A stretch of 64,000 nucleotides of DNA from Pseudomonadota bacterium (GTDB taxonomy: Bacteria; Pseudomonadota; Gammaproteobacteria; Burkholderiales; Burkholderiaceae_C), in assembly GCA_039798945.1 (NCBI GenBank), contig JBDKFA010000352.1, forward strand, positions 6,262-70,261. The letters run 5' to 3'. The notes under the pieces are model-generated. The model was not told the DNA's origin, did not search any database, and was given only the letters and a program-made list of their open reading frames with translations. Of the stretch, positions 9,338 through 38,506 are shown in pieces; the first letter of the stretch is position 1; each line of letters begins with the position of its first letter. The position numbers were made by a program, and so were the translations under genes.

Positions 9338-9362
9338 AGGCCGCACGCCCGGGGCCGCCACG

Positions 9363-10478
9363 ATGTCAGCCACTCCCCTGGAGCTGCCGCGCTGGGTCGA
9401 CCTCGTCGTGCTGCCCGCGGTCAACCTGGCGCTCGCGCTGCTCGTCTCCGGCCTCGTCGTGCTCGCAGCGGGGCTCGACCCGGTGGAAGTGGTGACGCTG
9501 CTGGTCAAGGGCGCCTTCGGCTCGAAGGCGGGGCTGAGCTACACGCTCTACTACGCCACCACCTTCGTCTTCACGGGCCTGGCGGTGGCGGTGGCGTTCC
9601 ACGCCGGGCTCTTCAACATCGGCGGGGAAGGCCAGGCCATCATGGGCGGTCTCGGGGCGGGGCTCGCCGCACTCGCGCTGGCCGAGCGGCTGCCAGCCTG
9701 GGCGATGCTGCCGCTGATGGTGCTCGCGGCGATGGCGTTCGGCCTGGCGTGGGCCGCGGTGCCGGCGGCGCTGCAGGCCTGGCGCGGCAGCCACGTCGTG
9801 ATCACGACGATCATGTTCAATTTCATCGCGAGCGCGGTGCTCGTCTACCTGCTCGTGGACGTGCTCAAGGAGCCGGGCAACATGTCGCCCGAGACGCGTG
9901 CCTTCGCGCCGAGCGCGCATCTGCCGGGCGTGCACACGGCGCTCGCCACGCTCGGCATCGAGTGGCCGCGCACGCCGCTGAACCTGAGCATCGTGCTGGC
10001 GGTGCTCGCCGCCGCCTTCGTCTGGGCGCTGCTGTGGCGCGCTGCACCGGGCTACGCGCTGCGCGGCACCGGGTTCTCGCCCCCAGCCGTGCAGTACGCA
10101 GGCATCTCGCCGCGTGCGCAGGTGATGGGGGCGATGATGCTGTCGGGCGCGCTGGCGGGCCTGGTGGGCATGAACGAGATCGCCGGCGTGCACCACCGGG
10201 TGCTCCTGGACTACACCGCCGGGGCGGGCTTTGCGGGCATCGCCGTCAGCCTCATCGGGCGCAACCACCCGGTGGGCATCGTGCTGGCCGCGCTGCTGTT
10301 CGGAGCGCTCTACCAGGGCGGGGCCGAGCTCGCCTTCGAGGTCAGCGGCTTCACGCGCGACATGGTCTTCACGCTGCAGGGGCTCGTGGTGCTGTTCGCC
10401 GGGGCGCTGGGCCAGGTGGCCGCGCCGACGCTCGCGCGGCTTTTCGCGCGTCGGCCCCGCGCTGCGGCGACAGCCTGA
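9363..10478 (+). CDS. Nucleoside ABC transporter permease
   Basis: Multi-TM; FHAGLFNIGGEGQ, SHVVITTIMFN, AGFAGIAVSLIGRNHP. Confidence 0.9.
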   Translation: MSATPLELPRWVDLVVLPAVNLALALLVSGLVVLAAGLDPVEVVTLLVKGAFGSKAGLSYTLYYATTFVFTGLAVAVAFHAGLFNIGGEGQAIMGGLGAGLAALALAERLPAWAMLPLMVLAAMAFGLAWAAVPAALQAWRGSHVVITTIMFNFIASAVLVYLLVDVLKEPGNMSPETRAFAPSAHLPGVHTALATLGIEWPRTPLNLSIVLAVLAAAFVWALLWRAAPGYALRGTGFSPPAVQYAGISPRAQVMGAMMLSGALAGLVGMNEIAGVHHRVLLDYTAGAGFAGIAVSLIGRNHPVGIVLAALLFGALYQGGAELAFEVSGFTRDMVFTLQGLVVLFAGALGQVAAPTLARLFARRPRAAATA

Positions 10479-10488
10479 GGGCACACCC

Positions 10489-11466
10489 ATGGACGAGACC
10501 TTCCTCGGCACGGTGCTCGCCTCCACGCTGCGCGTGTCCACGCCGCTGGTGCTCGGCGCGCTGGCGGGCTGCCTGAGCGAGCGCGCAGGCGTGATCGACA
10601 TGGGGCTGGAAGGCAAGATGCTGATGACGGCCTTCATCGCCGCCAGCGTCGGCGTGGCCACCGGCTCGCTCGGCCTCGCGCTGCTGGCCGCCGTGGCCAC
10701 CGGCGTGGCGCTGTCGATGCTGCAGGGCTATGCCTGCGTCACGCACCGCGGCGACCAGGTCGTCACCGGCATGGCGCTGACGATGACGGCCGCCGGGCTC
10801 ACGGTGGTTCTGGGCATCGCGTGGTTCGCGCAGGGCGGCCAGACGCCGCCCGTGCCCGAGGCGGTGCGGCTGGATGCCCACGGCCAGGCGCTGGGCGCGG
10901 CGCTCGAGCAGCTGCCGGTCATCGGGCGCACGCTGGCGCTGGCCTTCACCGGGCACAACCTGCTCGTCTACGGCGCGCTCGCGCTGGTGGCCGCCGTGTG
11001 GTGGCTGCTCTACCGCACGAGCCTCGGGCTGCGGCTGCGCGCCACCGGCGAGAATCCGGCCATGGTGGACGCTGCCGGCTTGTCGGTGACGGGTCTGCGC
11101 TACGGGGCGCTGGCGGGCAATGGCGTGCTGTGCGCGCTCGCAGGCGCCTACCTCGTGCTCGGCCTGAATGCGGCCTTCAACCCGCACATGACGGCCGGGC
11201 GCGGCTACATGGCGCTGGCCGCGATGATCTTCGGCAAGTGGCACCCGGTCGGGGCGCTCGCCGCGTGTCTGCTCTTCGGTTTCCTGGACGCGCTGTCGAT
11301 CCGCCTGCAGGGCGTGTCGATGCCCGAGGCCTGGGGTGGCGGCGCCGTGCCAGTGCAGGCCATCCAGGCGCTGCCCTACGTGCTCACGGTGGTGCTGCTG
11401 GCCGGCTTCTTCGGCCGCGCGCGCGCGCCGCGTGCGCTGGGCACGCCTTACGTGAAGGAACGGTGA
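10489..11466 (+). CDS. Nucleoside ABC transporter permease
   Basis: Multi-TM; SERAGVIDMGLEG, RATGENP, GRGYMALAAMIFGKW. Confidence 0.9.
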   Translation: MDETFLGTVLASTLRVSTPLVLGALAGCLSERAGVIDMGLEGKMLMTAFIAASVGVATGSLGLALLAAVATGVALSMLQGYACVTHRGDQVVTGMALTMTAAGLTVVLGIAWFAQGGQTPPVPEAVRLDAHGQALGAALEQLPVIGRTLALAFTGHNLLVYGALALVAAVWWLLYRTSLGLRLRATGENPAMVDAAGLSVTGLRYGALAGNGVLCALAGAYLVLGLNAAFNPHMTAGRGYMALAAMIFGKWHPVGALAACLLFGFLDALSIRLQGVSMPEAWGGGAVPVQAIQALPYVLTVVLLAGFFGRARAPRALGTPYVKER

Positions 11467-11473
11467 GGCGACG

Positions 11474-11920
11474 ATGAAGGAGCCCCGGATGCCTACACCC
11501 CTGGATGCCGCCGCCGAAACGCGGCTGATTGATGCGGCGCGCGCCGCGCGGTCGCGGGCCTACGCGCCGTATTCAGGCTTCCACGTGGGCGCCGCGCTGC
11601 TCGACGAGACGGGCCGCGTGCACGCGGGCTGCAACGTCGAGAACGCCGCCTACCCGCAAAGTCAGTGCGCGGAGGCCGGTGCGATCGCCGCCCTCGTGCT
11701 CGCCGGCGCGCGCCGCATCACGGCGGTGGCCGTGGTGGGCGAGGCCGCCGAGCCCGTGACGCCTTGCGGAGGCTGCCGGCAGCGGCTGCGCGAGTTCGCG
11801 GCCGATGGCACCCCCGTGCTCGTGGCCGATGCGAGCGGGCTGCGGCTGCGCACCACGCTTGGCGCGCTGCTGCCGCATGCCTTCGGGCCCGCGCACCTGG
11901 AACGCGAGGAGCCCGCGTGA
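11474..11920 (+). CDS. cdd: Cytidine deaminase (homotetrameric type)
   Basis: AYAPYSGFHVGAA, GCNVENAAY, CAE, PCGGCRQ zinc ligands. Confidence 0.93.
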   Translation: MKEPRMPTPLDAAAETRLIDAARAARSRAYAPYSGFHVGAALLDETGRVHAGCNVENAAYPQSQCAEAGAIAALVLAGARRITAVAVVGEAAEPVTPCGGCRQRLREFAADGTPVLVADASGLRLRTTLGALLPHAFGPAHLEREEPA

Positions 11921-12771
11921 GCGTGCAGGCAACGAGGCCCGCCGTACCTCCGGACAGCGCCGTGCAGGCGAGCGTCGCCCGGCTGCGCGCAGCGCTCGCC
12001 GGGCGGCCGCTGCCGCGCGTGGCCCTGCTGCTGGGCTCGGGCTGGGGCGCAGCAGCCGAGGCCGTCACCGATGGGGTAGACGTGGGCTACGCGGAGCTGC
12101 CCGGCTTTCCCGAGCCCGCCGTGGGTGGGCACACGGGGCGTGTGCGGCTGGGCCTGCTCGGCGCGCAGCCGGTGGCCGTGCTGCTCGGCCGCGCCCACGC
12201 CTACGAGACGGGCGAGGCGACCGCGATGGCATCAGCCGTGCGAACGGTGGCCGCGCTTGGCTGCCGCGTGCTCGTGCAGACCAATGCTGCAGGCAGCCTG
12301 GACACCACGATGCCACCCGGGCGCATCATGGTGCTCAGCGACCACCTGAACCTGCCGCAGCGCTCGCCGCTCGTGGCCGTGCGCGACGACAGCCGCTTCG
12401 TCGACCTGCGCGATGCCTACGACCCCGCGCTGCGCGCGCACGCGCAACGCTGCGCACAAGGCCTCGGGCTGCCGCTGCACGAAGGCGTCTACGCCTGGGT
12501 CATGGGCCCGCAGTTCGAGACGCCCGCGGAGATCCGCATGCTGCGCCTGCTGGGCGCGGACGCGGTGGGCATGAGCACCGTGCCGGAGACGATCCTCGCG
12601 CGCCACGCCGGGTTGCGGGTGCTGGCGCTGTCGCTCGTCACGAACCTCGCCTGCGGGCTCGGCGAGGAGGGGCTCAGCCACGGCCACACGCTGGCCTCGG
12701 CGGCGCGGGCTGCGCAGGACGCGAGCCGGCTGCTGCAGGCGATCGTCGCCGGCATCGAGCTGCACCCCTGA
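11917..12771 (+). CDS. Purine nucleoside phosphorylase (trimeric PunA/XapA type)
   Basis: LLGSGWG, GRAHAYE, TNAAGS, GPQFETPAE, VGMSTVPE, VTNLA. GTG overlaps the cdd stop. Confidence 0.92.
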   Translation: MSVQATRPAVPPDSAVQASVARLRAALAGRPLPRVALLLGSGWGAAAEAVTDGVDVGYAELPGFPEPAVGGHTGRVRLGLLGAQPVAVLLGRAHAYETGEATAMASAVRTVAALGCRVLVQTNAAGSLDTTMPPGRIMVLSDHLNLPQRSPLVAVRDDSRFVDLRDAYDPALRAHAQRCAQGLGLPLHEGVYAWVMGPQFETPAEIRMLRLLGADAVGMSTVPETILARHAGLRVLALSLVTNLACGLGEEGLSHGHTLASAARAAQDASRLLQAIVAGIELHP

Positions 12772-26526: not shown

Positions 26527-27390
26527 ATGACCTTCCTCGACCAGCTGCTCGCCGCCGAGCGCGCCCACGACTCGCTGCTGTGCGTGGGGCTCGACCCCGA
26601 ACCCGCGAAGTTCCCCGGTGACTGGCAGGGCGACGCCTCGCGCATCTACGACTTCTGCGCCGCGATCGTGGACGCCACGTGCGACCTCGTGCTCGCCTTC
26701 AAGCCGCAGGTGGCCTACTTCGCGGCCCACCGTGCCGAGGCGCAGCTTGAGCGGCTCGTTGCGCACATCCATGCCCGCGCGCCGGGCGTGCCGGTGATCC
26801 TGGACGCCAAGCGCGGGGACATCGGCGCCACCGCCGAGCAGTACGCGCGCGAGGCCTTCGAGCGCTACCAGGCCGATGCGGTCACGCTCTCGCCCTTCAT
26901 GGGCTTCGATTCCGTGGAGCCCTTCCTGCGCCACGCCGGCAAGGGCGTGATCCTGCTGTGCCGCACCTCCAATCCGGGCGGCGACGACCTGCAGGCACAG
27001 CGGCTCGCCAGCGGCGAGCGGCTGTACGAGCACATCGCCCGTCTGGCCGCCGGCGCCTGGAACACCACCGGGCAGCTCGGGCTGGTGGTGGGGGCGACCT
27101 ACCCGCAGGAGCTCGCCCGCGTGCGCGAACTCGCGCCCGCGCTGCCGCTGCTGATCCCGGGCGTGGGCGCCCAAGGCGGTGATGCCGCGGCGACCGTGCG
27201 TGCCGCCTGGCGCGGCCACCGCGACGACCAGGGGCGCACGACGACGAGCTCGCCCATCATCGTCAACTCCTCCCGGGCCGTCCTGTACGCCAGCCGCGGC
27301 CCCGACTTCGCGCAGGCCGCCCGCGCCGCCGCACAGGCCACGCGCGCCGAACTGCAAGCCGCATGCGCCTGCACAATCGGCCCGACCTGA
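26527..27390 (+). CDS. pyrF: Orotidine-5'-phosphate decarboxylase (subfamily 2)
   Basis: [51 protein letters not shown]. Confidence 0.95.
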
Positions 27391-27506
27391 GCATTCCAGC
27401 ACGATACCCCCGAACCGAGGGGGAGGGGCTTGCCCTGGAAGACCTGCGCTTTCGCTAGATTGCACGAGGGTGCCCCCGTCTCGGCGGGGCTCCGCTTCGC
27501 ACGCCC

Positions 27507-28241
27507 ATGTCCATCACCCTCGCCACCGCGCTGGTCGCGGCCACCGTCACCCTGCCGTCCTGCTCGTGGGACCGGCCGGGCGCCGACCCGTACATGGGGG
27601 ACATCGAGGCTGCGGTGGACCGCTACCGCGACATTCCGCCCGACGTGCGCGCACGCCTGAAGGCCAAGATGCGCCAGCGCGCCTACGACGACATCGCGGC
27701 CATCACGCGCGACAAGATCGAGGGCAAGCGCAGCTACTCGAACCTGCGCGACATGCACTTCGGCAACGGGCGCGTCTGCCGCGAGGTGGGGCGCAGCAAG
27801 TGGAAGCCTGAGGCGGTGGAGCGCGGACTCGTCTACTGCGAGGGCGAGCACTGCCTGATCGTCCCCACGGTGTGCCGCAACGTCAGCCGCGTCACGCTGG
27901 AGCAGGCCCACAACCCGAAGACGGCCGCAGGCCCCGCGGACGAGCCGCTCGACCTGCCCTCCAGCGGCGGCCCCAACATGCTCCGCGGCCAGCGCTTCCT
28001 CGACGAGACCGACCCGCTGCCCGCGCGCATCCGCTCGCTGGAGCCGCCCCCGGGCGAACTGACTTTCGACCCGCCCGCCCTGGGGCAGGAGCCACCCCCC
28101 GAGCTGCCGCGCGAGCCGCTGCCCGATCCGAGCCCGCCGATCCCCCCTCCGCCCATCCCCGAGCCCTCCACCTGGGCGCTGATGGCCCTGGGCCTGGCTA
28201 TGGTGGCCAGGCAGGCGCGGCGCGCACGGGCCTCCTCCTAG
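27507..28241 (+). CDS. MHFG-family PEP-CTERM protein
   Basis: N-terminal hydrophobic leader, CSWDRPG, MHFG motif, Cys-rich core (CEGEHC...VCRNVSR), Pro-rich linker, C-terminal IPEPSTWALMALGLAMVARQARR sorting signal. Confidence 0.9.
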   Translation: MSITLATALVAATVTLPSCSWDRPGADPYMGDIEAAVDRYRDIPPDVRARLKAKMRQRAYDDIAAITRDKIEGKRSYSNLRDMHFGNGRVCREVGRSKWKPEAVERGLVYCEGEHCLIVPTVCRNVSRVTLEQAHNPKTAAGPADEPLDLPSSGGPNMLRGQRFLDETDPLPARIRSLEPPPGELTFDPPALGQEPPPELPREPLPDPSPPIPPPPIPEPSTWALMALGLAMVARQARRARASS

Positions 28242-28936
28242 AAGCCTTCGGCCCGCACGCGGCTGGCCAGGTCGGGCCAGCGCGCCATCTTGCTGGCGTC
28301 GCCCAGGCGCCGGTCCTGGCCGGCCTGTGCGCGCCAGGTGCCCTCGGCATTGAAGACGTAGGTGGGCGGCGACAGGTCCGTGCGAAGCGATGCCGGGTGC
28401 ATCTCGCGCACCACGTTGTCCAGGATCAGCGGCTCGGCGCTGGGTTGGGGGTAGTAGGCGAGCACCATGTGCGCCACGCTCGTCTCGCCGGGCCGCTCCG
28501 GCGCGGCAGGCGGCACCGAGATCGCCACATAGGCCATGCGCAGCTTGGCATGCGGCACGCCGGCCGCCACGAGGGTGAAGTACTTGGCGATCACGAAGTC
28601 CTCGCAGTCGCCGCGCCCCTTGTCGAGCGTCTGCAGCGGGCTCGCCCAGTACTCCTGCTGATTCCACACGGCCATGTCGCTGTCGTAGCGGATGCGCGCG
28701 TTGTAGAACTCGTTGACTTCGCGCGCCTTCACCACCTCGTCGGCTGCTGCCAGGCGCTGCACGAGCGCCAGCAAATCGCGCGCGCCGGCCTCGGCGCGAG
28801 GCCCGAGGCCGGCAGCGGCCACTCGCAGCTGCTCCGCGTCCAGCGCCAGGGCCGGGGCTGGGGCCAGCAGGAGCAGCGCCGCACAGCCGAGCGCGGCGGT
28901 GGCGGCGACAGCACCTTGGCGCAGTCCAGCGCCCAT
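28238..28936 (-). CDS. lapG: LapG-like transglutaminase-like cysteine protease (copy 1)
   Basis: Signal peptide; YWASP, GRGDCED (Cys), HMVLAYY (His), ILDN (Asp); in line with lapD. Confidence 0.9.
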   Translation of the reverse strand: MGAGLRQGAVAATAALGCAALLLLAPAPALALDAEQLRVAAAGLGPRAEAGARDLLALVQRLAAADEVVKAREVNEFYNARIRYDSDMAVWNQQEYWASPLQTLDKGRGDCEDFVIAKYFTLVAAGVPHAKLRMAYVAISVPPAAPERPGETSVAHMVLAYYPQPSAEPLILDNVVREMHPASLRTDLSPPTYVFNAEGTWRAQAGQDRRLGDASKMARWPDLASRVRAEGF

Positions 28937-28955
28937 GCCCGGCTCGACCGCGACC

Positions 28956-30875
28956 TCAGCTGCCCGGCCGCTTGATCGCCGGGCCGGTCGCTCCGTCGAA
29001 GCCGATGCGCCACAACGCCGGCAAGTCCTCGGCCTGCGAGATCCCCTCGGCGTACAGCGTCACACCGATGCTGCGCGCGGTGGCCACGACCTGGGCGGCG
29101 TAATCGGCCAGCTTCGTGTCCTGGTGGATGCCGCGCAGGAAGCGGCCATCGACCTTCAGGAAGTCGAGCCCCCTGCCCTTGGCGTCCAGCAGCGTCTGCA
29201 GCGACTCCTTCGCCCCGCCCAGCCCGAACCGCACGCCCATCGGCTTCCACAGTGCCGCGGCCGCCGGCCAGGCCTGCTCGGCGTGTACCGCCGATTCGGT
29301 GGCCTCCACCACCAGCTTGCGCGCGGCGCCCGCATGCTGGGCCAGCAGGTTGCTGACCGCCTGCACGAACTGCGCATCGGCCAGCGAGGCGGCGGACATG
29401 TACACGCAGCGTGCCACCCCGTCGCGCGGGATCGCCTGCAGCGCCATGCGCGTGGCCATCAGGTCGGCCTGCTGCACGAGCTGCGCGCGGATGGCCATCG
29501 GCAGCCAGTGCGCCGAACTGTAGAAGGGGCCGTCGGGCTCGAGCTGCAGGCGCAGCGGGCACTCCAGGTGCAGCACCCCGCCATCGGGCCCGATCACGGC
29601 GAACTCCGCGAGCCGGGCGCGCCCGAGCTGCAGCGCCTCGGTGACCCGGCGGCGCCACTCCTGCTCGCCCATCACCTCGCCCTCGCTGCCGGGGCGCACG
29701 GCCACCGCAAAGGGGCCCTCGCTCTCCGCCTGCGCCAGCGCCTGGTCGGCCTTGGACAGGGTCTGTCCCACGGCGCCCGTGGCCAGCCCTTCCAGCGCGC
29801 CGATGTGGAACTCGGCCTCGGGGTCGGCCTGCTGGAAAAGCGGCCGCACCGCCGCGGCCAGCTCCTCGGCCACCACCTTGCCGACACCGTTGACCGGGAC
29901 GTACAAGGCGAAGTCGGAGCCGTTCAGCCGGCCGCACAGGCTGCCTTCGACGCGGGCGGCGCATTCGTTGAGCTTCACGCCGACGTCGGCCAGCAGCCGG
30001 TCGGCGACGTTGCGTCCCACCCGCCGGTTGATCGCGTTGAGCGCCTGCACCCGCAGCAGCACCAGCGCCCCGCGGCGCGTGACCGTGCTGGCCGTGGAGC
30101 TTCCGCCCAGCGCGCGCTCGAGCTGCGCCAGGAAGTGCGCCCGGTTGTGCACCCCGGAGACGCCGTCGCGCTGCAACTGCTGGCGCATCGTGTCGAGCTG
30201 GCTCGCCTGGTTCTCGAACAGCGTCTTCACGCGTCGCACCATCGAGTTCATGCCAGTGGCCAGCGCCTTGAACTCGAGCGTGCGCGGCAACGCGATCTCG
30301 GTGAAGCGCGCCTCCTCCACGCCGCGCGCCTGCTCGACCATGCCGTCGAGCGTCTCGCGCCAGCCGCGTACGAACGTGAAGGCCACGGCGAGCGCGGCCG
30401 CCCCGATCACCAGCAGCGTGAAGACGAAGCGCAGCATCCCGTCCCACAACGCGTTGTAGGCCCACGCCCCATGGCTTTCCACCGACAGTTGCCCGATCTG
30501 GCGCCAGCCGTCGATGACGGTGGCCACGCCCGCCGGGGCCTGCAGCGGCAGTGCGCGGACGAACCACGCCGGCGCATTGCCCACCGTCTCCGGGCTCTCG
30601 CGCTCGATGATCACGGCGCCATCCACCCCTGCCAGGCGGATGCGGCGGTAGTGGCCCGCATCGAACTGCGCCTGCAGCACGAGTTCGATCATCTTCAGGT
30701 CGCCGCGCTGCGCGTTGGCCACCTGCGCGAGCAGCGCGGCCGCGTCGCCGTTGCGGGCCTGCCACTGCGACTGCATCGACTTCTGGAAGATCCAGGTGCC
30801 CACGGCCGCGCTGCCACCGAAGGCCAGCAGCACCACCATCGACAGCAGCAGCGCGATCTGGCGGATCATCGACAC
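28956..30875 (-). CDS. lapD: LapD-like c-di-GMP receptor (periplasmic domain, TM, HAMP, degenerate GGDEF and EAL)
   Basis: LapD/MoxY N-terminal domain with the GWRQ loop (30498-30509); GGDEF replaced by NGSDF; EAL replaced by ECPLR; DDFG motif lost. Confidence 0.9.
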   Translation of the reverse strand: MSMIRQIALLLSMVVLLAFGGSAAVGTWIFQKSMQSQWQARNGDAAALLAQVANAQRGDLKMIELVLQAQFDAGHYRRIRLAGVDGAVIIERESPETVGNAPAWFVRALPLQAPAGVATVIDGWRQIGQLSVESHGAWAYNALWDGMLRFVFTLLVIGAAALAVAFTFVRGWRETLDGMVEQARGVEEARFTEIALPRTLEFKALATGMNSMVRRVKTLFENQASQLDTMRQQLQRDGVSGVHNRAHFLAQLERALGGSSTASTVTRRGALVLLRVQALNAINRRVGRNVADRLLADVGVKLNECAARVEGSLCGRLNGSDFALYVPVNGVGKVVAEELAAAVRPLFQQADPEAEFHIGALEGLATGAVGQTLSKADQALAQAESEGPFAVAVRPGSEGEVMGEQEWRRRVTEALQLGRARLAEFAVIGPDGGVLHLECPLRLQLEPDGPFYSSAHWLPMAIRAQLVQQADLMATRMALQAIPRDGVARCVYMSAASLADAQFVQAVSNLLAQHAGAARKLVVEATESAVHAEQAWPAAAALWKPMGVRFGLGGAKESLQTLLDAKGRGLDFLKVDGRFLRGIHQDTKLADYAAQVVATARSIGVTLYAEGISQAEDLPALWRIGFDGATGPAIKRPGS

Positions 30876-30936
30876 GGCGCGGCCCCTTTGCGACACGGTT
30901 GAGGTGAGCACGGAGTCTACGCGTGAAGTCCGCGAT

Positions 30937-30968
30937 GGCTGCTGCGGGGGGAACGGCTGCTGCGGGGG
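30937..30968. repeat. 14-bp direct repeat x2 upstream of lapD
   Basis: ggctgctgcggggg at 30937-30950 and 30955-30968. Confidence 0.55.
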
Positions 30969-31011
30969 CGGCGTGGGCGGCGGGCGCTGGCGGCCCGCGC
31001 CGCAGGGACGC

Positions 31012-31770
31012 TCAGAACCCTTCGGCCTTGATCCGGTTCATCGCGTCGCGCCACTTGGAGATGCGCGCCATCGGGTCGCCCATGCTCTGCTGCCCCACCC
31101 CTTGCCACAGGCCCTCGGTGTTGAAGCTGAACACAGGCTTGAGGTCCGGGCGCTGCGAAGCGGGCCGGATCTCGTCGGTCAGGTTGTCCAGGATGACAGG
31201 CTCGGCAGTGGGCTGGGCATAGTACGCGAGCACCATATGCCCGACCGACTCGGCCGGTTGCGTCGCCGTGGCGGGCAGGTCGGCCTTCACGTAGATCAGG
31301 CGCATCTTGGACGCCGGCATGCCCCCGGCCAGCAGCGTGAAGTACTTGGCGATCGCGTAGTCCTCGCAGTCCCCGCGGCCCTGTCCAAAGGTCTCCAGCG
31401 GGCTTGCCCAATAGTCCAGTTGCTGCCACAGCCGCAGGTCCGAGGTGTATCGGATCTTGCGGTTGTAGAAGAGGTTCGTCTCTTCGTGCTGCACGGCTTC
31501 GTCGGCCCCCGCGAGCCGGCTCACGAGTTCCTGCATCTCCTGGACCATGCGCTCGGTCTCGCCGCCGCGCTCGCGCGCCGCCTGCAGCACCCGCCCGGCG
31601 CTGAAGGCCTGCGCGACCGAGCTCAGGGTCAGGCCAACGGCCAACACCGCGCACAGGCCCACGACCACCGGCGGGCGGCACAGCGCTGCCCGCCAGGCCC
31701 GGGCAGCCGCGCCCGCCCGGGACGGCGCGGCACTCGGATGCGAAGGCAGGTGCGGACGCAAGTGACTCAT
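31012..31770 (-). CDS. lapG: LapG-like transglutaminase-like cysteine protease (copy 2)
   Basis: DYWASPLE, GRGDCEDYAIAKY, HMVLAYY, ILDN; signal peptide ending AQA. Start uncertain. Confidence 0.9.
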   Translation of the reverse strand: MSHLRPHLPSHPSAAPSRAGAAARAWRAALCRPPVVVGLCAVLAVGLTLSSVAQAFSAGRVLQAARERGGETERMVQEMQELVSRLAGADEAVQHEETNLFYNRKIRYTSDLRLWQQLDYWASPLETFGQGRGDCEDYAIAKYFTLLAGGMPASKMRLIYVKADLPATATQPAESVGHMVLAYYAQPTAEPVILDNLTDEIRPASQRPDLKPVFSFNTEGLWQGVGQQSMGDPMARISKWRDAMNRIKAEGF

Positions 31771-32047
31771 GGGCGAATCTCGCGAGCGGTCGGGGTCAGG
31801 CAATGGACGAACGACAGGAACGGAACCCACTTCACACTATGCCGCGCCGGCCTCGGGACGAAGCCGGCCCTCGGCCCCCTCCAACCGGGGGGGAAGAGTC
31901 GCCGCCGCGTGACGTCCGTCACGACCCGGGCCCGGCTGTGCGCCTCGGCGCCCCCAGCCGGGGCCGCCTGCGATTGTGCACAGCCGGCCGCCTCCGCCGA
32001 AACCGGCGCGCGTACAAGCGGTGCGCGTGCACACGGATTCGCCCGCC

Positions 32048-33370
32048 CTAGCGCTCCCGCAGTGCCTGCGAGACGTTTTGCAGCGGCCGGAACAGGTACT
32101 CGAGCACGGTCTTGTGGCCGGTGCGGATCTCCACCAGCGCCGTCATGCCCGGCAGCGGCTCGAGCGTCATGCCTGCGCGCACGCGGTCGCCGTCGCGGAT
32201 GCGCACGAGGATGCGGTAGAAGCCCTCCTCGAGCTCGGGCAGGCTGCCCGGACGGCGGTTGCGCTCGTCCTTCAAGGTGTCCGGGCTCACCTGCTCGAGC
32301 ACGCCGTCCAGGCCCCCGTACTTGTTGAAGTCATAGGCGGTGAGCTTCACCGTGGCGGCCTGGCCGGGCCGCAGGAAGGCCACCTCGGTGGGCCGCACGT
32401 AGGCCTCCACCAGCATCTCGTCTTGCACGGGTACGATCTCCAGGATGTTCTGCCCGGGCTGGATGACGCCACCGACGGTGGTGATCTGCACGTTCTTGAC
32501 GATGCCCTTCATCGGCGCGCGGATCACCGTGCGGCGCAGGCTGTCCTCGCGCGCGAGCGCGTTCTCGCGCGTCTGCGCGAGCTCGCTTTCCACACGCGTG
32601 AGCTCGTTGCTGGCATCCGTCAGGTAGCGGTTGCGCCGCTCGACGATCTGCCCTTGCAGGTCTGCCTGCTGGCGCCCGAGGTCGGCCAGCTGGCGCTTGA
32701 GCTCGGCCTCCTGGCGCTGCAGCCGCAGCAGCTCCACTTCCGAGATCACACCCTGGCGCACGAGGGGCTGCGTCATCTCGAGTTCGCGCCGGGTGGCGAG
32801 CATCGAATCCTGCACCGCCCGCACCGAGCCTTCGGTGGCGGCCAGCGAGGCCCGGATGGCGCGCACCTGCTCCTCCAGCGCCTGGCGCCGCGCCTCGTAG
32901 GCCTGGCGTTCGCGCGCCAGCACCGCCGGCACGGCACGCACCTCCGGCGGAAACTCGAGCGCCGCACCACGAGCCTCGGCGCGCAGCCGCGCCGCGAGCG
33001 CGGCCAGGGCCAGCGCCTTCTCGCGTGCCTCGCGGTAGACCGGGCCGGCACGGGCATCGTCGATGCGAAGCAGCACCTGCCCCGCGCTCACGGCATCGCC
33101 CTCGCGCACGAGCAGTTCGCGCAGGATGCCCGAGTCGAGGCTTTGCACCACCTGCTCGCGGCTGGCGGGGATGACGCGGCCCTGGGCGCGCGTGATCTCG
33201 TCGAGCTCGAAGGTGGCCGCCCAGCCCAGGGCCACGGCCAGCGTCAGCGCGGTGGCCCACAGCAGCCAGCGGCTCGTGCACCGCTCCTCCTCCTCGGGGC
33301 TGTCCAGCACGCGTGCCGGGGCCGATGCGGGCGCACGGGCAGCTTCGGCAGCCGGACGGGCGGGCTTCAC
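32048..33370 (-). CDS. lapC: HlyD-family type I secretion membrane fusion protein (LapC-like)
   Basis: N-terminal TM, GRVIPASREQVVQSLDSGI, coiled coil, IRAPMKGIV, PGMTA, GHKTVLEYLFRP. GTG overlaps the lapB stop. Confidence 0.9.
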   Translation of the reverse strand: MKPARPAAEAARAPASAPARVLDSPEEEERCTSRWLLWATALTLAVALGWAATFELDEITRAQGRVIPASREQVVQSLDSGILRELLVREGDAVSAGQVLLRIDDARAGPVYREAREKALALAALAARLRAEARGAALEFPPEVRAVPAVLARERQAYEARRQALEEQVRAIRASLAATEGSVRAVQDSMLATRRELEMTQPLVRQGVISEVELLRLQRQEAELKRQLADLGRQQADLQGQIVERRNRYLTDASNELTRVESELAQTRENALAREDSLRRTVIRAPMKGIVKNVQITTVGGVIQPGQNILEIVPVQDEMLVEAYVRPTEVAFLRPGQAATVKLTAYDFNKYGGLDGVLEQVSPDTLKDERNRRPGSLPELEEGFYRILVRIRDGDRVRAGMTLEPLPGMTALVEIRTGHKTVLEYLFRPLQNVSQALRER

Positions 33371-35622
33371 GCGAAGCCCCCTGCGGGGGGCGCACCGGTG
33401 GCCGAGGCCCGGCCGGCGGCGGCCGGCACCGCGATGCCGCGGCTCAGCCGCTCGATCATCTGCGCCTTCGGGCCGCTGGCCAGGCATTGCCCGGCCTCGA
33501 TGACCGCGATCGCGTCCACGAGCTCGAGCAGCTGCGGGCGGTGCGTGGCCAAGAGCAGCGTGCGCCCGGGCAGCCACTGCTGGAGCGCAGCGATCACGCG
33601 CGCCTCGGTGTGCTGGTCCATGTGCGCGGTGGGCTCGTCCATGAATACGATCTGCGGGTCGCGCAGCATCATGCGCGCCAGGCTCAGCAGCTGGCGCTGC
33701 CCGCCCGACAGGCCGCCGCCCGCTTCGGTGAGCGGCCGGTCCAGCCCGCGCGGGTGCTCGGCCACCACCGGGTACAGCTCGATCGCCTTGAGCACTTCGA
33801 GGATTCGGCTGTCCGGCATGTGGCGGTCCGACAGCACCAGGTTCTCGCGCAGCGTACCCATGAACAGCATCGGCTCCTGGCCCACCCAGCCGATGCGCGC
33901 ACGCTGCGAGGCCGGGTCGATCTGCGACAACGCGATGCCGTCCACGCGCACCTGCCCGGCCAGCGGCTCGTGCAGGCCGGCGGCCACGCGCAGCAGCGTG
34001 GACTTGCCCGAACCCACGCGCCCGAGAAGCGCCATGCGCTCGCCGGGGGCAAGCTCCAGGCTCAGCCGGCGCAGCACCGGCAGGCCCTGCTCGCCGGGGT
34101 AGGCGAACTCCAGCTCGTCCAGGCGCAGCGCACTGCCCCGGGACGACCGGTCCGCCGCGAGATACCGGCGCGCGTCCTCGCGGTCGCGCGGCCGCTTCAT
34201 CAGACCGTCCAGCGTCTGCAGCGCGGTGGCCGCCTGCTGGTAGCGCGCGGCCAGCCCCATCACGCTGCCCAGCGGCGCGATGGCCCGTCCGGCGAGGATC
34301 ACCGCAGCGATCAGCCCCCCGAGCGTGAGCGCGTTGGCGTGGATCAGGTAGACGCCGGCCACCACCATCGCGATCGTCACGAGCTGCTGCAGGGTCTGCG
34401 TGAGCCCGAGGATCAGGTTGGTCAGCGCGCGGATGCGCTTGTAGGAGTCGGCCCCGAACTCGTTGGCGCGCTCCCAGCGCTGCTGCAGGTAGCCTTCGGC
34501 GTTGTGGGCCTTGAGCGCCTCCAGGTTCAGCAGCGCCTCCACCAGCACGCTCTGGCGGTCGCCGGCCTCCTTCATGTTCTCGCGCATCGCGCGCATCAGC
34601 GCGGGCTGCGCGAGCAGCGCAACCGCGAGCACGAGCGGCACGGCCAGCGTCGGGATCCAGCCGATGGGCCCGCCGACGATGAAGATGAGGGCGATGAACA
34701 GGGCGATGAACGGCAGCTCGGTGAGCAGCACGAAGGAGGCTGACGAGAAGAAGTCGCGCAGCGCCTCGAAGTCGCGCATCGAACTCGCGAAGATGCCGAT
34801 CGACTGCGGCCGGTGCTCCAGGCGGATGGACAGGATCTCGCGCAACAGCGTGGCGTTGATGGCCAGGTCGGCTCGCTTGCCGCCCAGGTCCACGAGGCGT
34901 GCCTTCAGCCAGCGCATCGCGAACTCCAGCAACGCGGCGGCCGCCGCGCCGATGGCCAGCGTCCACAGCGAGGTGTAGGCCTGCGTGGGTACCACGCGGT
35001 CGTAGACGTTCATCGTGAAGAACACACCGGCCAGCGTCAGCACGTTGGCGATGACGGTGGCCAGCATCGATTCGACGTAGAAGTGCCGGAAGCGCCACAA
35101 CGTGCTCCAGAACCAGCCGAAGGCGCGGCCGCGAAACGGCACGAGGGTCTGCCCGGACGGCTGCGCAAGCGCCTTCACGACGAGCACCTCGCCGGTGCTG
35201 GCGGCGTCGAGCTCGTGCAGCGGCAGGCGCAGCTCCTCGTGGCCGCCGTGGGGCGCGAGCACGCTCGCCTGCCCCTGGGCAATGGCACGCAGCACGTAGG
35301 CGCGTCCGTCCGTGCATGGCACGATCACCGGCAGCACGTAGCTCGGCAGGCGGCTGGGCAGGCCCTTGGCCCAGGAGGCCGCCAGTCCGTGCCGGCGTGC
35401 CAGGTCCGGCAGTGCGGCCAGGGGCACGCGGCCCTCGGCATCGACCGCGAACCCGGAGGTGAGCGCAGCCGCCTGCAGCGGCCGCTCGAGGATCTCGCCG
35501 GCCAGCATCAGGCAGGCCAGCACCGGGTCGTCCGGAAATGGCGGAAGCGGCGGCTCGGCCGGTGCAGCAGCAGTACCAGCAGCAGTACCAGCAGCGGTGG
35601 CGGCAGCGGTGGCAGCGGACAT
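33367..35622 (-). CDS. lapB: Type I secretion ABC permease/ATPase with C39-like domain (LapB-like)
   Basis: C39-like N-terminus, MNVYDRVVP, GRVGSGKST, LSGGQRQ, MDEPT. Confidence 0.92.
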   Translation of the reverse strand: MSAATAAATAAGTAAGTAAAPAEPPLPPFPDDPVLACLMLAGEILERPLQAAALTSGFAVDAEGRVPLAALPDLARRHGLAASWAKGLPSRLPSYVLPVIVPCTDGRAYVLRAIAQGQASVLAPHGGHEELRLPLHELDAASTGEVLVVKALAQPSGQTLVPFRGRAFGWFWSTLWRFRHFYVESMLATVIANVLTLAGVFFTMNVYDRVVPTQAYTSLWTLAIGAAAAALLEFAMRWLKARLVDLGGKRADLAINATLLREILSIRLEHRPQSIGIFASSMRDFEALRDFFSSASFVLLTELPFIALFIALIFIVGGPIGWIPTLAVPLVLAVALLAQPALMRAMRENMKEAGDRQSVLVEALLNLEALKAHNAEGYLQQRWERANEFGADSYKRIRALTNLILGLTQTLQQLVTIAMVVAGVYLIHANALTLGGLIAAVILAGRAIAPLGSVMGLAARYQQAATALQTLDGLMKRPRDREDARRYLAADRSSRGSALRLDELEFAYPGEQGLPVLRRLSLELAPGERMALLGRVGSGKSTLLRVAAGLHEPLAGQVRVDGIALSQIDPASQRARIGWVGQEPMLFMGTLRENLVLSDRHMPDSRILEVLKAIELYPVVAEHPRGLDRPLTEAGGGLSGGQRQLLSLARMMLRDPQIVFMDEPTAHMDQHTEARVIAALQQWLPGRTLLLATHRPQLLELVDAIAVIEAGQCLASGPKAQMIERLSRGIAVPAAAGRASATGAPPAGGFA
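35567..35614 (-). repeat. 12-bp tandem repeat x4 encoding ATAA-ATAA-GTAA-GTAA at the LapB N-terminus
   Basis: gcagcagtacca x2 then gcagcggtggc(g/a) x2 on the plus strand. Confidence 0.75.
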
Positions 35623-35716
35623 GGCCTTCAGTATCGCCGCAGCGGCCCAGGGGGCGGCGGCGGGCGTGCAGCGGCGGTCCGGCAAGCAGCAGCCAGCGGC
35701 CGCGGCCGCGCGGGGC

Positions 35717-36958
35717 TCAGCGCGCGTAGACCCGGCCGAGCTCGGCCAGCGCCGCAGACAGCCGGAACCGCGCCAGGCGCCGGTCGGCGCGCGCACCGGC
35801 CGCAGCCACCGCGTAGCCGTGTGCCTCGGCCTGGATGTTCAGCAGGTCCAGCAGCGAGCGGCGGGCCAGCCGGAACTGCAGCCGGTAGCCCTCGACCACC
35901 TTCTGTGCCGCCTGATCCTGACCGTCACTGAGCGATTCGCGCCGCTGCGTGGACTGCCACTCCGACCAGGCGGCGGTGATGCGTTCGCGCACCGCCAGGG
36001 CCTGCTCGTCGGCTGCCGCCCGCGCAGCGCGTGCCTGGGCGTCGGCCGAGGCCACGGCCGCCGAGCCCGCACCGGCGTTGAAGACGGGCATGCTCACACT
36101 CAGTTCCGTCTTCAGGCCAGGTCGCAGCGTGTAGGGGTTGAGCGGGTGGCTGAGCTGCAAGTCGACCTTCGGTCGTGTCTGCGCCCGTGTCTGCACGACG
36201 CCCGCATCGGCGGCCTCCACCTGCGCCAGGCTCTGCGCGATCAGGGGGTGCCGGGCACCGGCCGAGGCCAGCGCCTGCGCCAGCGAGGCAGGCAGCTCCC
36301 CGGGCTCCTCCTCCAGGCCGGCCGGCTGCGCCGGCAACGCCTGGGGCCAGAACCGCGCCAGCCGCGCCGCCGCCTGGGCCAGTTCGCCTTCACGCTGCTC
36401 GACGGCAAGGGCGGCCGCGTTCACGCGCACCTGCGCCTGGCTGAGGTCCACCAGGCGACCCGGGTCCACATCGACGATGCGCCTGACGTCCTCGCCGATG
36501 CGCTGCAGCGCCTGCAGGTTCTCGCGCGCCAGACCCACGATCTCGAACTGACGCGCCCAGACGATGTAGGCCTCGGCGGCCTGCAGCGCGACTTCGTCGA
36601 GCGTCGAGCCGGTCCTGCCCTGGGCGGCACGCTGCAGCGCATCGGCGCGCGCCACCCCGGCTTCGATGCCGCCTCCGGCATACAGGGTGTAGCTCGCCTG
36701 CGGCGTGGCCACGAGCCGGCGCGGGGCCCCCTCCTGCTCGACGGCCGTGGCGCCCACCCCTACGGTGGGCCAGCGCGCCGCCTTGGCCCGGTCGAGGTCG
36801 GCCGCGCTGCCGGCGGCATTGGCCCGGGCCGCGAGCACCGCCGGGTACTGGACGAGAGCCTCGCGCACCACCTCGCCCAGGGTCTGGGCGCGGGCCGCGG
36901 CAGCCGCCGCCAGCGCCAGCACACCGGCCGCGCCGGCGACCGCACCGGCGCGGCGCAT
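35717..36958 (-). CDS. lapE: TolC-family outer membrane protein (LapE-like)
   Basis: Signal peptide; ALVQYPAV, two TolC repeats, QFRLARRSLLDLLN. Start uncertain. Confidence 0.88.
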   Translation of the reverse strand: MRRAGAVAGAAGVLALAAAAAARAQTLGEVVREALVQYPAVLAARANAAGSAADLDRAKAARWPTVGVGATAVEQEGAPRRLVATPQASYTLYAGGGIEAGVARADALQRAAQGRTGSTLDEVALQAAEAYIVWARQFEIVGLARENLQALQRIGEDVRRIVDVDPGRLVDLSQAQVRVNAAALAVEQREGELAQAAARLARFWPQALPAQPAGLEEEPGELPASLAQALASAGARHPLIAQSLAQVEAADAGVVQTRAQTRPKVDLQLSHPLNPYTLRPGLKTELSVSMPVFNAGAGSAAVASADAQARAARAAADEQALAVRERITAAWSEWQSTQRRESLSDGQDQAAQKVVEGYRLQFRLARRSLLDLLNIQAEAHGYAVAAAGARADRRLARFRLSAALAELGRVYAR

Positions 36959-37173
36959 GCACCGGCGAGCCGGGCGCGGGGGCGGGAAGGGACACAGCCA
37001 CATGGCCGGCATGCTAACGGGCGGCCAGCCCGACGACCCGCGCCTGCGGACGGGACACGCCACCGGCCGGGCCGTGCACGCTGGGGGCAACCCGCAAGCC
37101 ATCGCGCCGCACCCGCGCTATCGTGCGGGTGCGGCACGCAGCTTCGCGCGCCGGTACAGCCGGAGACGGTCCT

Positions 37174-37965
37174 ATGTCCTTGTCTGCTCTTCCTGGGCGC
37201 CGCGCCTGTGCGGCCTTTCTGGCGGTCGCCTGTGCGCTGCCGTCCGCACCGGCACGCGCCGACCAGACGGTCGAGCTGCGATCCGGTGGCGGCTACCAGA
37301 GTCTTGCCCTGGCCGCCGACGTCACCGAAGTCGAGCTGCTCGAGCAGCTGCAAGGCGCCTGCCGCTTCAACCGCAGCTGGGGCTACGACCTCACGAACCG
37401 CGAGCTGTGGGTCAACGGCGGCTGCGGCGGCCGCTTCAAGCTCGTGCAAGCGGCGGCCGAGGACAAGGGCAATTCCAATGCGGCCGCTGCCGCAGTGGCG
37501 GTGGCAGCGATCGCCGGCATCGCCATCCTCGCCAAGGCCAACCGCGACCGTCCGGACCACAGCCCGCCGCCGGAGCCCCCCTACACGCGCGGGCAGCCCA
37601 TCCGCAGCCAGCGCGGCCTGTGCCTGGACGTGGCCGACGGCCGCATGCGTCCCGGCGCACCGGTGCAGCTCTACAGCTGCCACGGGCGCGAGAACCAGCG
37701 CTTCACCTGGGGGCGAGGCGGGGAGATCGTCACGCCCAACCAGCTCTGCCTGGACATCCAGAACGCCAACACCGCAGACGGCGCGCGGCTGATCGTGTGG
37801 AACTGCTCGGGCGCGCGCAACCAGCGATGGCACGCGCGCGGCGGCACGATCGTGAGCCAGCTCAACGGCAAGTGCGTGGATGTCTTCGAAGGCCAGTTCC
37901 GCAACGGCCAGCCGGTGGTCGCCTGGAGCTGCAACGGCGGGCCCAACCAGCGCTGGTGGTGGTGA
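37174..37965 (+). CDS. Exported protein: DUF3011-like domain + ricin-type beta-trefoil lectin
   Basis: Signal peptide; CRFNRSWGYD...LWVNGGCGGRF; hydrophobic spacer; three CLD...C...NQR(F/W)xW ricin-B repeats. Confidence 0.82.
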   Translation: MSLSALPGRRACAAFLAVACALPSAPARADQTVELRSGGGYQSLALAADVTEVELLEQLQGACRFNRSWGYDLTNRELWVNGGCGGRFKLVQAAAEDKGNSNAAAAAVAVAAIAGIAILAKANRDRPDHSPPPEPPYTRGQPIRSQRGLCLDVADGRMRPGAPVQLYSCHGRENQRFTWGRGGEIVTPNQLCLDIQNANTADGARLIVWNCSGARNQRWHARGGTIVSQLNGKCVDVFEGQFRNGQPVVAWSCNGGPNQRWWW

Positions 37966-37969
37966 GGAG

Positions 37970-38506
37970 ATGAGGATGCACAAGCAAGCGTTCACCGTGA
38001 CCCGCCTGACGCTGTGGCACTCGGTTGGGCACCTGGCGGCCTCGTTGGCCTTGGCGGCATCACCGCTGGCGGTGTGCGCCGCCCCGGCCGCGGCTCCCGC
38101 GGCCTCGGCGGGCGCCAAAGGCGGGACAAACGCCCCGCGCATGAGCGGCGCCGAGCAGGCTTGTCGCGCTGCCGATCACGACCACGACGGGTTCATCTCG
38201 CTGGCCGAATACCAGCGCGACGTCGCGCGCAGCTGGGCTGCACTCGGCCCCGACGCCACTGGCTACGTCAAGCTGGACGACCTGGCCGCCATCCCGGGGC
38301 TGCGCCGCAGCGTGCTGGAGCGGCTGCGCCAGGCCGACGCCGACGGCGACGGGCGGCTGTCGTTCAAGGAGGTGGTCGCCGCGCGCATGGCGCAGTTCGA
38401 CGCCGCCGACCTCGACCGCGACGACCGGCTGTCGATGAAGGAGTGCATCGACCACGAGCGCAAGCTCGGCGCCGAGCAGCGGGCGCAGCGCCGCGGGAAG
38501 TCCTGA
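37970..38506 (+). CDS. Exported EF-hand calcium-binding protein
   Basis: DHDHDGFISLAEY, DADGDGRLSFKE, DLDRDDRLSMKE and one degenerate hand; hydrophobic N-terminus; GGAG RBS. Confidence 0.85.
   Translation: MRMHKQAFTVTRLTLWHSVGHLAASLALAASPLAVCAAPAAAPAASAGAKGGTNAPRMSGAEQACRAADHDHDGFISLAEYQRDVARSWAALGPDATGYVKLDDLAAIPGLRRSVLERLRQADADGDGRLSFKEVVAARMAQFDAADLDRDDRLSMKECIDHERKLGAEQRAQRRGKS

Follow-up and report, generated by a model that had tools for sequence, protein, structure and literature searches.

The Lap system is the textbook example of inside-out signalling by cyclic di-GMP (c-di-GMP), in which one receptor, LapD, and one protease, LapG, decide whether an adhesin is retained at the cell surface. 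The closest described cases are LapD/LapG/LapA-LapEBC of Pseudomonas fluorescens Pf0-1, CdgS9/LapG/RtxA of Legionella pneumophila and the BrtA system of Bordetella bronchiseptica. The locus described here lies in a 64,000-nucleotide stretch of DNA (positions 6,262 to 70,261 of contig JBDKFA010000352.1; hereafter the window), which has 72% G+C and is part of a metagenome-assembled genome (MAG; GCA_039798945.1; 4.19 Mb, 370 contigs, 95.8% complete). It shares with these systems an LssB-type type I secretion system (T1SS), a protease of the BTLCP family and LapD, and it carries two lapG genes, lapG1 and lapG2, around a single lapD. This two-lapG locus is a rare, conserved variant of the well-known Lap system, and the more novel part of the analysis is the lead that PEP-CTERM proteins of the MHFG family, one of which is encoded next to lapG2, may be LapG substrates.

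Common to the Pf0-1 type and the present locus are a periplasmic protease with a Cys-His-Asp triad and a DCED calcium motif, a LapD with a periplasmic GW loop and degenerate GGDEF and EAL domains, and a lapG gene directly upstream of lapD; LapG1 here also keeps the Pf0-1-type docking strand. Unlike in Pf0-1, a second LapG, 48% identical to the first and with an altered docking strand, is encoded directly downstream of lapD, no adhesin gene is present at the locus or in the assembly, and the T1SS genes are joined to the same operon. The locus is also diverged in sequence, in that its LapD is 36-42% identical to other Burkholderiales LapDs and NCBIfam equivalog cut-offs are not reached.

Several (T/A/P)AAG-containing surface proteins act under one LapD in Vibrio cholerae (FrhA/CraA) and P. 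fluorescens (LapA/MapA), as appears to be the case here, but in those organisms one protease serves both substrates (PMC6890996; 10.1101/198937), whereas here the protease is duplicated and diverged. In Pseudomonas aeruginosa, LapG cuts CdrA, a two-partner-secretion substrate, which provides a precedent for a TAAG site in a protein that is neither LapA nor T1SS cargo; CdrA is held in the outer-membrane TpsB pore, whereas the candidate considered here is Sec-exported and carries a PEP-CTERM (exosortase) anchor. In the DvhG/DvhD system of Desulfovibrio vulgaris, the Trp-binding pocket of DvhG is occluded and its di-alanine specificity is kept (PMC13090378), and catalysis and receptor coupling can therefore evolve separately. 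DvhG is membrane-anchored and paired with an HD-GYP/dCache receptor, whereas LapG2 is of the soluble type with a signal peptide and lies beside a classical LapD. Caulobacter HvyA is a distantly related BTLCP that works without LapD (PMC4241560) and is controlled by abundance, whereas LapG2 is a bona fide member of the LapG clade and is predicted to be co-transcribed with lapD.

LapG1, LapG2 and the LapD docking strand

The original prediction, whose observations are confirmed in full, placed lapG2, lapD and lapG1 in one orientation, and all three do lie on the minus strand: lapG1 at 31012-31770 (252 residues; its open reading frame, ORF, extends to 31830), lapD at 28956-30869 (637 residues; the ORF extends to 30911, and the start taken is the ATG used by its orthologues) and lapG2 at 28238-28936 (232 residues). 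Both proteases pass the 27-bit cut-off of Pfam PF06035 (Peptidase_C93), LapG2 with 50.2 bits and LapG1 with 48.2. The best and sole NCBIfam match of each, over nearly the full length of the model, is NF045674 (cysteine protease LapG), at 187.9 bits for LapG2 and 195 bits for LapG1; its cut-off of 320 bits is not reached, which we infer to reflect divergence from the sequences behind the equivalog model. LapG1 occupies the usual position directly upstream of lapD.

Residues were compared in an alignment of 12 LapG1-clade and 19 LapG2-clade sequences with 92 other LapGs and the P. fluorescens and L. pneumophila enzymes. The triad of both clades aligns with C135, the His of the H-M-V-L motif and the Asp of the L-D-N strand of P. 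fluorescens LapG, and the Cys-His-Asp that had been read in both proteases is invariant in both clades (C111, H156 and D173 in LapG2). The calcium motif G-D-C-E-D is present in both copies (31360-31374 in LapG1 and 28598-28612 in LapG2), the residue at E136 being Glu or Asp among LapG2-clade members, and no member of either clade departs from the loop Asp corresponding to D111; the roles of the calcium-site and catalytic residues in LapG are documented (PMC4359373; PMC13090378). The His motif reads GHMVL in LapG1 (31228-31242) and AHMVL in LapG2 (28460-28474). The sequences quoted earlier as differing near the active site are indeed present, EYWASPLQT in LapG2 (28628-28654) and DYWASPLET in LapG1. 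E126 is replaced by Gln in 95% of the LapG2 clade and is Glu in 100% of the others, and D119 (the Asp of DYW), 99-100% conserved elsewhere, varies among E, N and D in LapG2. For a difference in Ca2+ dependence, one of the options originally named, these two changes stand beside a D-C-E-D motif and a D111 that are kept. Other conserved LapG2-specific changes are V159>A, A163>I and changes in the C-terminal lobe, and LapG2 also has a five-residue insertion, VPPAA (28502-28516), before the His strand. LapG1 has clade-specific residues too, including A169>G at another interface site.

Each protein begins with a hydrophobic N-terminus and an A-x-A-type site characteristic of an export signal (PALA/LD in LapG2 and VAQA/FS in LapG1, judged by hydropathy and by eye). 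An AlphaFold2 (AF2) model of LapG2 (predicted local distance difference test, pLDDT, 79.7) matches P. fluorescens LapG (4u65_E) with a TM-score of 0.85 and 4fgo and 4fgq with 0.82-0.85, the E-values across LapG structures being 1e-13 to 1e-15; its confidence is lowest at residues 201-220, just past the docking strand, with a smaller dip at the insertion. The LapG1 sequence matches 4u65_E with an E-value of 1.2e-44, and LapG1 looks canonical.

The two copies part company at the strand by which LapG docks on LapD. Its consensus, PV[FY]SFNxEGLW, is about 95% conserved across the 92 betaproteobacterial LapGs, the LapG1 clade (PVFSFNTEGLW at 31105-31137 in LapG1 itself) and the P. fluorescens and L. 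pneumophila enzymes, whereas LapG2 has the altered strand PPTYVFNAEGTW (28334-28369, minus strand). The LapG2 pattern is PPTY[VML]FNAEG[TA]W, with one inserted residue and the changes V>T, S>V/M/L and L>T/A, and the LapG2 clade shows an entropy of 1.0 bit per column over the strand, compared with 0.19-0.22 for LapG1-clade sequences and the 92 other LapGs. In the deepest LapG2 branch the strand is fully rewritten to TVTALQNVPNPVR, with the gene still located between lapD and the MHFG gene. Strand beta4 of LapG forms the pocket for the LapD Trp, and V205 and Y206 of P. fluorescens LapG are two of four cross-link-validated LapD interface positions (PMC4359373); from the positions of these two residues we infer that the PV[FY]SFN strand is beta4.

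The LapD of the window matches PF16448 (LapD_MoxY_N) with 101 bits, GGDEF with 55.9 and EAL with 92.7, and has two transmembrane segments by hydropathy. Its GGDEF motif is degenerate (GSDF, 29910-29921), as is its EAL motif (ECP, 29556-29564); its best matches in the PDB are the LapD entries 3pjw and 3pjv, and NF045673 gives 307.7 bits, below the cut-off of 1020. The GWxQ loop attributed to this LapD is kept as GWRQ at residues 121-124 (30498-30509), the G and W are invariant in 80 LapD loops, and the loop IDGWRQIG is identical across the clade. Because a surface that fits an invariant partner should itself be conserved, and yet the LapG2 strand is variable, this comparison is the main reason to think that LapG2 may no longer dock on LapD canonically.

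Since the catalytic and calcium motifs and the fold are kept while the docking strand is altered, a Glu has become Gln and an insertion is present, LapG2 is probably a specialised paralogue that is coupled to LapD differently. The reading that we favour, with somewhat less than even confidence, is that LapG1 is the LapD-gated adhesin protease and LapG2 an active, specialised paralogue whose LapD coupling has been lost or weakened and which probably acts on the MHFG protein, an adhesin or both. LapG1 would be the ordinary LapD partner, exported to the periplasm, held at high c-di-GMP on the LapD GW loop via the conserved docking strand, and released at low c-di-GMP to cut the (T/A/P)AAG site of a protein at the cell surface, which would presumably be an adhesin of the LapA kind secreted through the LapEBC type I system of the same predicted operon. 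LapG2, for its part, would have arisen by an old duplication and would still function as a calcium-type protease with the Cys-His-Asp triad; because its docking strand and the residues adjacent to its active site are remodelled, it would most likely escape canonical LapD sequestration, or be weakly subject to it, and its substrate preference would have shifted. What the analysis establishes is the gene order, its conservation, the selection on both copies, the intact catalytic motifs, the LapG fold, the divergent docking strand and a comparative tie between MHFG proteins and LapG proteases; the lost or weaker LapD control, the protease activity and the substrates are deductions from these. A point on the other side is that the docking strand in most LapG2 members is altered and not deleted, so that docking with a changed affinity is possible.

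The alternative that survives best, although we regard it as rather unlikely, is that both proteases compete for the single high-affinity site of one LapD dimer, with different affinities, so that they would come free at different c-di-GMP levels and produce a graded, two-threshold switch. One LapD with an intact GWRQ loop does lie between two lapG genes, all three predicted to be co-transcribed; the LapD dimer binds one LapG asymmetrically, and occupation of the second site has been proposed to free the first (PMC4359373); and most LapG2 members keep a recognisable P-x-Y-x-F-N-x-E-G-x-W. However, competition would need a conserved LapG2 strand, given the invariant LapD loop, whereas no other part of the catalytic domain varies as much as this strand, which has been rewritten in one LapG2 sub-branch that keeps the same operon. 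The original prediction had listed competition for LapD among its options, and in its simple form this option becomes less likely in view of an altered, poorly conserved strand facing an invariant GW loop.

The MHFG protein as a candidate substrate

In the favoured reading, the most likely additional target of LapG2 would be the adjoining MHFG-family PEP-CTERM protein (27507-28241, plus strand, 244 residues; NF038119 243.5 bits, above the cut-off of 100; Pfam PEP-CTERM 26.3 bits). Its gene is convergent with lapG2, the stop codons overlapping by 4 nucleotides, and pyrF and purB are next after it. In the AF2 model, residues 21-130 fold into a globular domain (pLDDT >90), which a disordered, Pro-rich linker joins to a C-terminal PEP-CTERM helix with PEPSTW at 28158-28175; Exosortase_EpsH is found with 221 bits on contig C7 of the MAG. 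A LapG-like motif in the disordered linker would separate the globular domain from the membrane/exosortase anchor. TAAG (27921-27932) forms residues 139-142 at the start of the linker, and ELTFDPPALG is at 28056-28085; the range used for predicting LapG sites in adhesins is 80-150 residues (10.1101/198937), and the TAAG falls inside it.

Further indications come from MHFG proteins at large. The linker motif [EP]LxF[DE][TPA]P?[ASG]AG is present in 82 of 120 MHFG homologues, where shuffled linkers would give about one. In 21 retention-module adhesins from this bacterial family the true sites read GGDL-x-x-E-L-E-A-[TAP]-A-A-G (ELEAPAAG, ELEATAAG, QLDPAAAG and ELDPAGAG are examples), and the core common to these sites and the MHFG motif is hydrophobic-[DE]-[AP]-[TAP]-A-A-G; MHFG proteins differ from the adhesins in being without the upstream targeting helix, in having Phe for Leu and, often, in having Gly-Ala or Ser-Ala for Ala-Ala. 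Among the 57 MHFG-bearing genomes of the family, 49 with and 8 without LapG, 55 were scorable for the motif, which occurs in 45 of 47 LapG-positive and 1 of 8 LapG-negative genomes (Fisher p = 1.4e-6) and, counted by genus, in 24 of 26 and 1 of 5 (p = 0.002), the test using one fixed regular expression that was chosen after seeing the data, has a chance rate of 1% and is not phylogenetically corrected. The single LapG-negative carrier is a MAG of 88% completeness. These results suggest that MHFG proteins may be an unrecognised class of LapG substrates, and a literature search found no publication naming both LapG and PEP-CTERM.

Two side observations concern the MHFG genes themselves. In the LapG-negative genome G645 (C19:725819-726575, locus L141), the family model matches the MHFG gene in two segments that lie in different frames, and the gene may be a frameshifted pseudogene. 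In the window, the MHFG domain (27507-27900, residues 1-130) has five invariant Cys residues, of which one belongs to an atypical L-P-S-C box where the signal peptide ends. The alpha/beta fold of this domain has no PDB match (Foldseek best E 0.15, TM 0.12), and on these values its identification as an adhesin retention module was rejected.

A further link is provided by two unrelated 40%-GC contigs on which a LapG-like C93 gene overlaps an MHFG gene on the same strand (L181, 6372-7980, identical in L182; and L183, 3822-5721). The MHFG linkers encoded there have two PL[ED]FETAAGP sites, and the FETAAG-type site of the window MHFG clade is of the same type. These contigs look like phage, with dense, small, same-strand ORFs, a phage-type metallophosphoesterase (phrog_1649, 1e-57) and a NUMOD3 homing endonuclease, and no LapD is encoded on either of them (9.9 kb and 6.0 kb). 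They also encode a further small PEP-CTERM protein. When metagenomes were scanned with the phage-like MHFG, the matches were high-GC relatives on short contigs without an adjacent C93, which is uninformative on adjacency. None of the 14 IMG/VR contigs carrying MHFG homologues has a C93 next to it, and their linker motif is different. Several MHFG homologues on the IMG/VR contigs L184-L193 (54-71% G+C) are without the LapG-like motif and have [IVL][EQ][IV]PGG[TSP]GG instead; these contigs are possibly prophage or host fragments.

One might go further and propose a two-arm Lap circuit, which we consider conceivable but doubtful: MHFG proteins would be a second class of LapG substrate, tethered in the periplasm or at the surface and freed by LapG-type cleavage of the conserved linker motif, LapG2 would in this lineage have been uncoupled from LapD to serve them, LapG1 would remain the c-di-GMP-gated protease of the adhesin, and the protease-substrate pair would be mobile on freshwater phages.

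A number of observations weigh against assigning MHFG to LapG2. A weight matrix built from the adhesin sites lifts only 15 of 120 MHFG linkers over the 99% shuffle level, and the sites of the window MHFG score below zero on it. Two LapG-positive cases are missed by the regular expression, and the window MHFG is one of them; it has only NPKTAAG, which is without a hydrophobic or acidic lead-in, and ELTFDPPALG, which has Ala-Leu. Its nearest relative has TAAR and PPELG, and the TAAG is kept in only four of six clade loci checked; in L221 the first site is degenerate and a TAAG lies further along the linker. The adjacency of MHFG and lapG2 is confined to one narrow syntenic clade and counts as a single evolutionary event, and in most genomes a single canonical LapG goes with an MHFG gene that is not linked to it. 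Adjacency of MHFG and LapG as a family-wide feature is ruled out, as 12 other genomes have no LapG, LapD, pyrF or purB near MHFG. Co-occurrence of MHFG and LapG in genomes (19 of 23) was likewise set aside as evidence; genomes with only other PEP-CTERM proteins have LapG in 13 of 19 cases and the rest in 32 of 109, and the association is therefore with the PEP-CTERM lifestyle and not with MHFG specifically. Lastly, it is LapG1 and not LapG2 that the phage-like proteases resemble, with 52-57% identity and a docking strand of the canonical form. The division of substrates between a type I adhesin and a PEP-CTERM protein, as originally proposed, is plausible and gains indirect support from the linker motif, its co-variation with LapG and the two phage-like pairs, which connect MHFG with LapG; this connection concerns LapG proteases generally and not LapG2, and the sites in the window are weak.

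A further alternative is the reverse division, in which LapG1-type enzymes process MHFG and LapG2 serves another substrate, for example an unassembled T1SS adhesin; we judge this to be distinctly unlikely. In L181 and L183, the C93 proteases whose genes overlap MHFG have the LapG1 clade as their closest relatives and share its clade-specific residues GHM, YVKA, RISKWRD and ETF, and the FETAAG-type site of the window clade matches the type found on those contigs. The margin of identity is small, however, as the same proteases are 49-54% identical to other LapGs; in addition, LapG1 stands in the canonical place after the T1SS genes and upstream of lapD, and it is lapG2, not lapG1, that abuts the MHFG gene in the clade.

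The favoured reading also presupposes an adhesin, and here too there is evidence against it. The MAG contains no NF033682 retention module (E<=1), nor any ORF in which GGxGxD is repeated three times or more; in three related MAGs (G551-G553) the retention module appears only as weak, partial FecR-like matches, and no RTX-repeat protein is assembled there either; in other genomes of the family it is usually found near lapG. The adhesin weight matrix gave one match in the MAG, inside a DUF748/AsmA-like protein, which was judged to be chance. Either a giant adhesin is systematically unassembled or the LssB-type T1SS has cargo of another kind. As a separate observation, contig C45 of the MAG encodes, at about 7193-12233 on the minus strand, a 1680-residue ORF with a LEPR-XLL-like N-terminus (EPRLLYSAD).

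Age, retention and rarity of the second LapG

The phylogeny of the two copies, which the original prediction had put forward as a check, places LapG1 and LapG2 each in a monophyletic clade of its own with 100% support in the Shimodaira-Hasegawa-like approximate likelihood-ratio test (SH-aLRT) in both trees computed; the LapG2 clade has 19 sequences. The stem of LapG2 is about twice as long as that of LapG1 (1.25 against 0.74 substitutions per site in one tree and 1.16 against 0.60 in the other). A recent tandem duplication is ruled out by the 48% identity and the separate clades. As to a horizontal origin of LapG2, the two trees disagree: the clades stand apart with LapG2-centred sampling and are grouped together with two singletons, at 92% SH-aLRT, when 60 representatives of an exhaustive search are added. 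In that search the LapG2 cluster ranks fifth among the 4979 library hits to LapG1 (E up to 0.001). The simplest reading would be an old duplication near the base of the lineage, with transfer as a possible alternative.

Ratios of nonsynonymous to synonymous substitution rates (dN/dS) between orthologues are 0.17-0.47 for LapG1 and 0.18-0.39 for LapG2, with 0.10-0.19 for LapD and 0.14-0.29 for pyrF; to judge from these ratios, neither LapG copy appears to be decaying and both are under purifying selection. In a metatranscriptome (one RNA run, 8% of sampled words), short contigs fall on MHFG (27485-27764), lapD and lapG1 (31050-31191). A lapG2 contig was not found in this one run, nor was any RNA run found for lapG2 on its own, which weighs against the favoured reading, although assembled contigs cannot show absence.

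We find it improbable that LapG2 has no role of its own and is either a redundant spare or a duplicate in slow decay. In both P. fluorescens and V. cholerae, two adhesins are handled by a single LapG (10.1101/198937; PMC6890996), so that several substrates do not call for a second protease; the lack of a lapG2 contig in the RNA run and the relaxed constraint in the LapG2 C-terminal lobe also fit redundancy. On the other hand, the frame is intact in 19 of 19 clade members with the catalytic residues invariant, the dN/dS of LapG2 is like that of LapG1, the gene is retained down to 61% identity, and the LapG2-specific Q126, I163 and VPPAA insertion are themselves conserved. Full redundancy of the copies, named at the outset as fatal to the idea of two distinct proteases, is thus argued against by their 48% identity, separate clades, purifying selection and LapG2-specific changes in documented regions, and the original interpretation as a whole is partly supported.

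PEP-CTERM/exosortase systems are associated with exopolysaccharide loci, which would favour an HvyA-like role for LapG2, independent of LapD and directed at envelope or exopolysaccharide machinery in place of a di-alanine adhesin site. With HvyA as a precedent and the LapG2 docking strand altered, such a role can be imagined, but it is very improbable, as LapG2 nests among betaproteobacterial LapGs, close to LapG1 in the library ranking given above, and lapG2 is predicted to be co-transcribed with lapD.

The arrangement itself recurs. Four other loci (L005, L006, L022, the last a 749-kb contig, and L023) have tolC-lapB-lapC-lapG1-lapD-lapG2 with a convergent MHFG gene followed by pyrF/purB; L024 and L033, two contigs of a single MAG labelled Rubrivivax sp., each hold one half of the locus; and L007 and L221 show its lapD-lapG2-MHFG part. 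In all, the layout recurs in at least five further independent freshwater assemblies. Because the same locus with its pyrF/purB flank is found in independent assemblies, the two-lapG arrangement is not an assembly artefact. Close relatives of LapG2 form 17 database clusters at 61-86% identity, the next level being about 50%, and the runs that hold the sequence are freshwater metagenomes; as every readable context shows the arrangement, it is a trait stably kept by a narrow Rubrivivax-like clade from fresh water. Within the genus in its present delimitation, the whole locus is variable, since neither LapG nor MHFG was found in the same-genus genome G138 and two further genomes of the same GTDB genus, G690 and G799, in which LapG was not searched, are without MHFG.

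The original statement that model systems have one LapG per LapD agrees with the literature on those systems, and second, unlinked BTLCP copies occur in about 6-12% of sampled BTLCP-bearing genomes. Across the family, 150 other genera were sampled with one genome each; a BTLCP occurs in 63 of these genomes and two copies in three, none of these three with a linked pair. A class-wide sample of 400 genomes contains 69 with one BTLCP and eight with two or three, the copies in these eight being always on separate contigs or more than 900 kb apart. In the best 80 betaproteobacterial loci, lapG is single in 76 and lies directly upstream of lapD wherever the contig reaches lapD. Outside the clade, no linked two-lapG/lapD layout was found in about 550 sampled genomes or in the 76 other lapG-lapD loci.

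The operon and its wider significance

Six minus-strand genes follow one another with short gaps in the transcription order tolC-lapB-lapC-lapG1-lapD-lapG2. The first encodes a tolC/lapE-like outer-membrane factor (35717-37102; Pfam OEP 120.7 bits; TIGR01844 155 bits, under the cut-off), which is supported by synteny in L005, L006 and L022. It is followed by a lapB-like T1SS ABC transporter of the LssB type (33367-35796; TIGR03375, type_I_sec_LssB, 754.9 bits, above the cut-off of 693) and a lapC-like T1SS adaptor of the HlyD family (32048-33400; TIGR01843 348.8 bits, above the cut-off of 208.65). The spacer between lapD and lapG2 is 19 nucleotides, and no terminator-like or promoter-like sites were found in 27300-37400. 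Because the six genes are co-oriented, their spacers short and terminator-like sites absent from this interval, they are read as one predicted operon. In the MAG, lapG1 and lapG2 are the only BTLCP genes, and there is one full LapD only.

Upstream of tolC, a ricin-lectin-like gene and an EF-hand gene are divergent from the operon (37123-38506) and are syntenic with it in L005, L006 and L022. The ricin-B lectin-domain protein is secreted and has a central hydrophobic segment, and the two proteins may belong to the same surface or calcium-related module as the lap operon. In some relatives a further gene, not present in the window, stands between lapC and lapG1: in L022 (14454-15209) it is glycosyltransferase-like with 251 residues, and in L006 (5653-6264) it encodes 203 residues with no Pfam match.

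Finally, a lineage with two proteases around one receptor is a natural experiment on the separation of receptor coupling from substrate choice. If the MHFG link is true, LapG control would extend from T1SS and two-partner-secretion adhesins to exosortase (PEP-CTERM) cargo, a very large and almost uncharacterised class of proteins, and the MHFG domain, which has no solved structural relative, would gain its first functional handle. In addition, the LapG-MHFG pairs on phage-like contigs may represent a route by which phages alter the surface proteins of their hosts.

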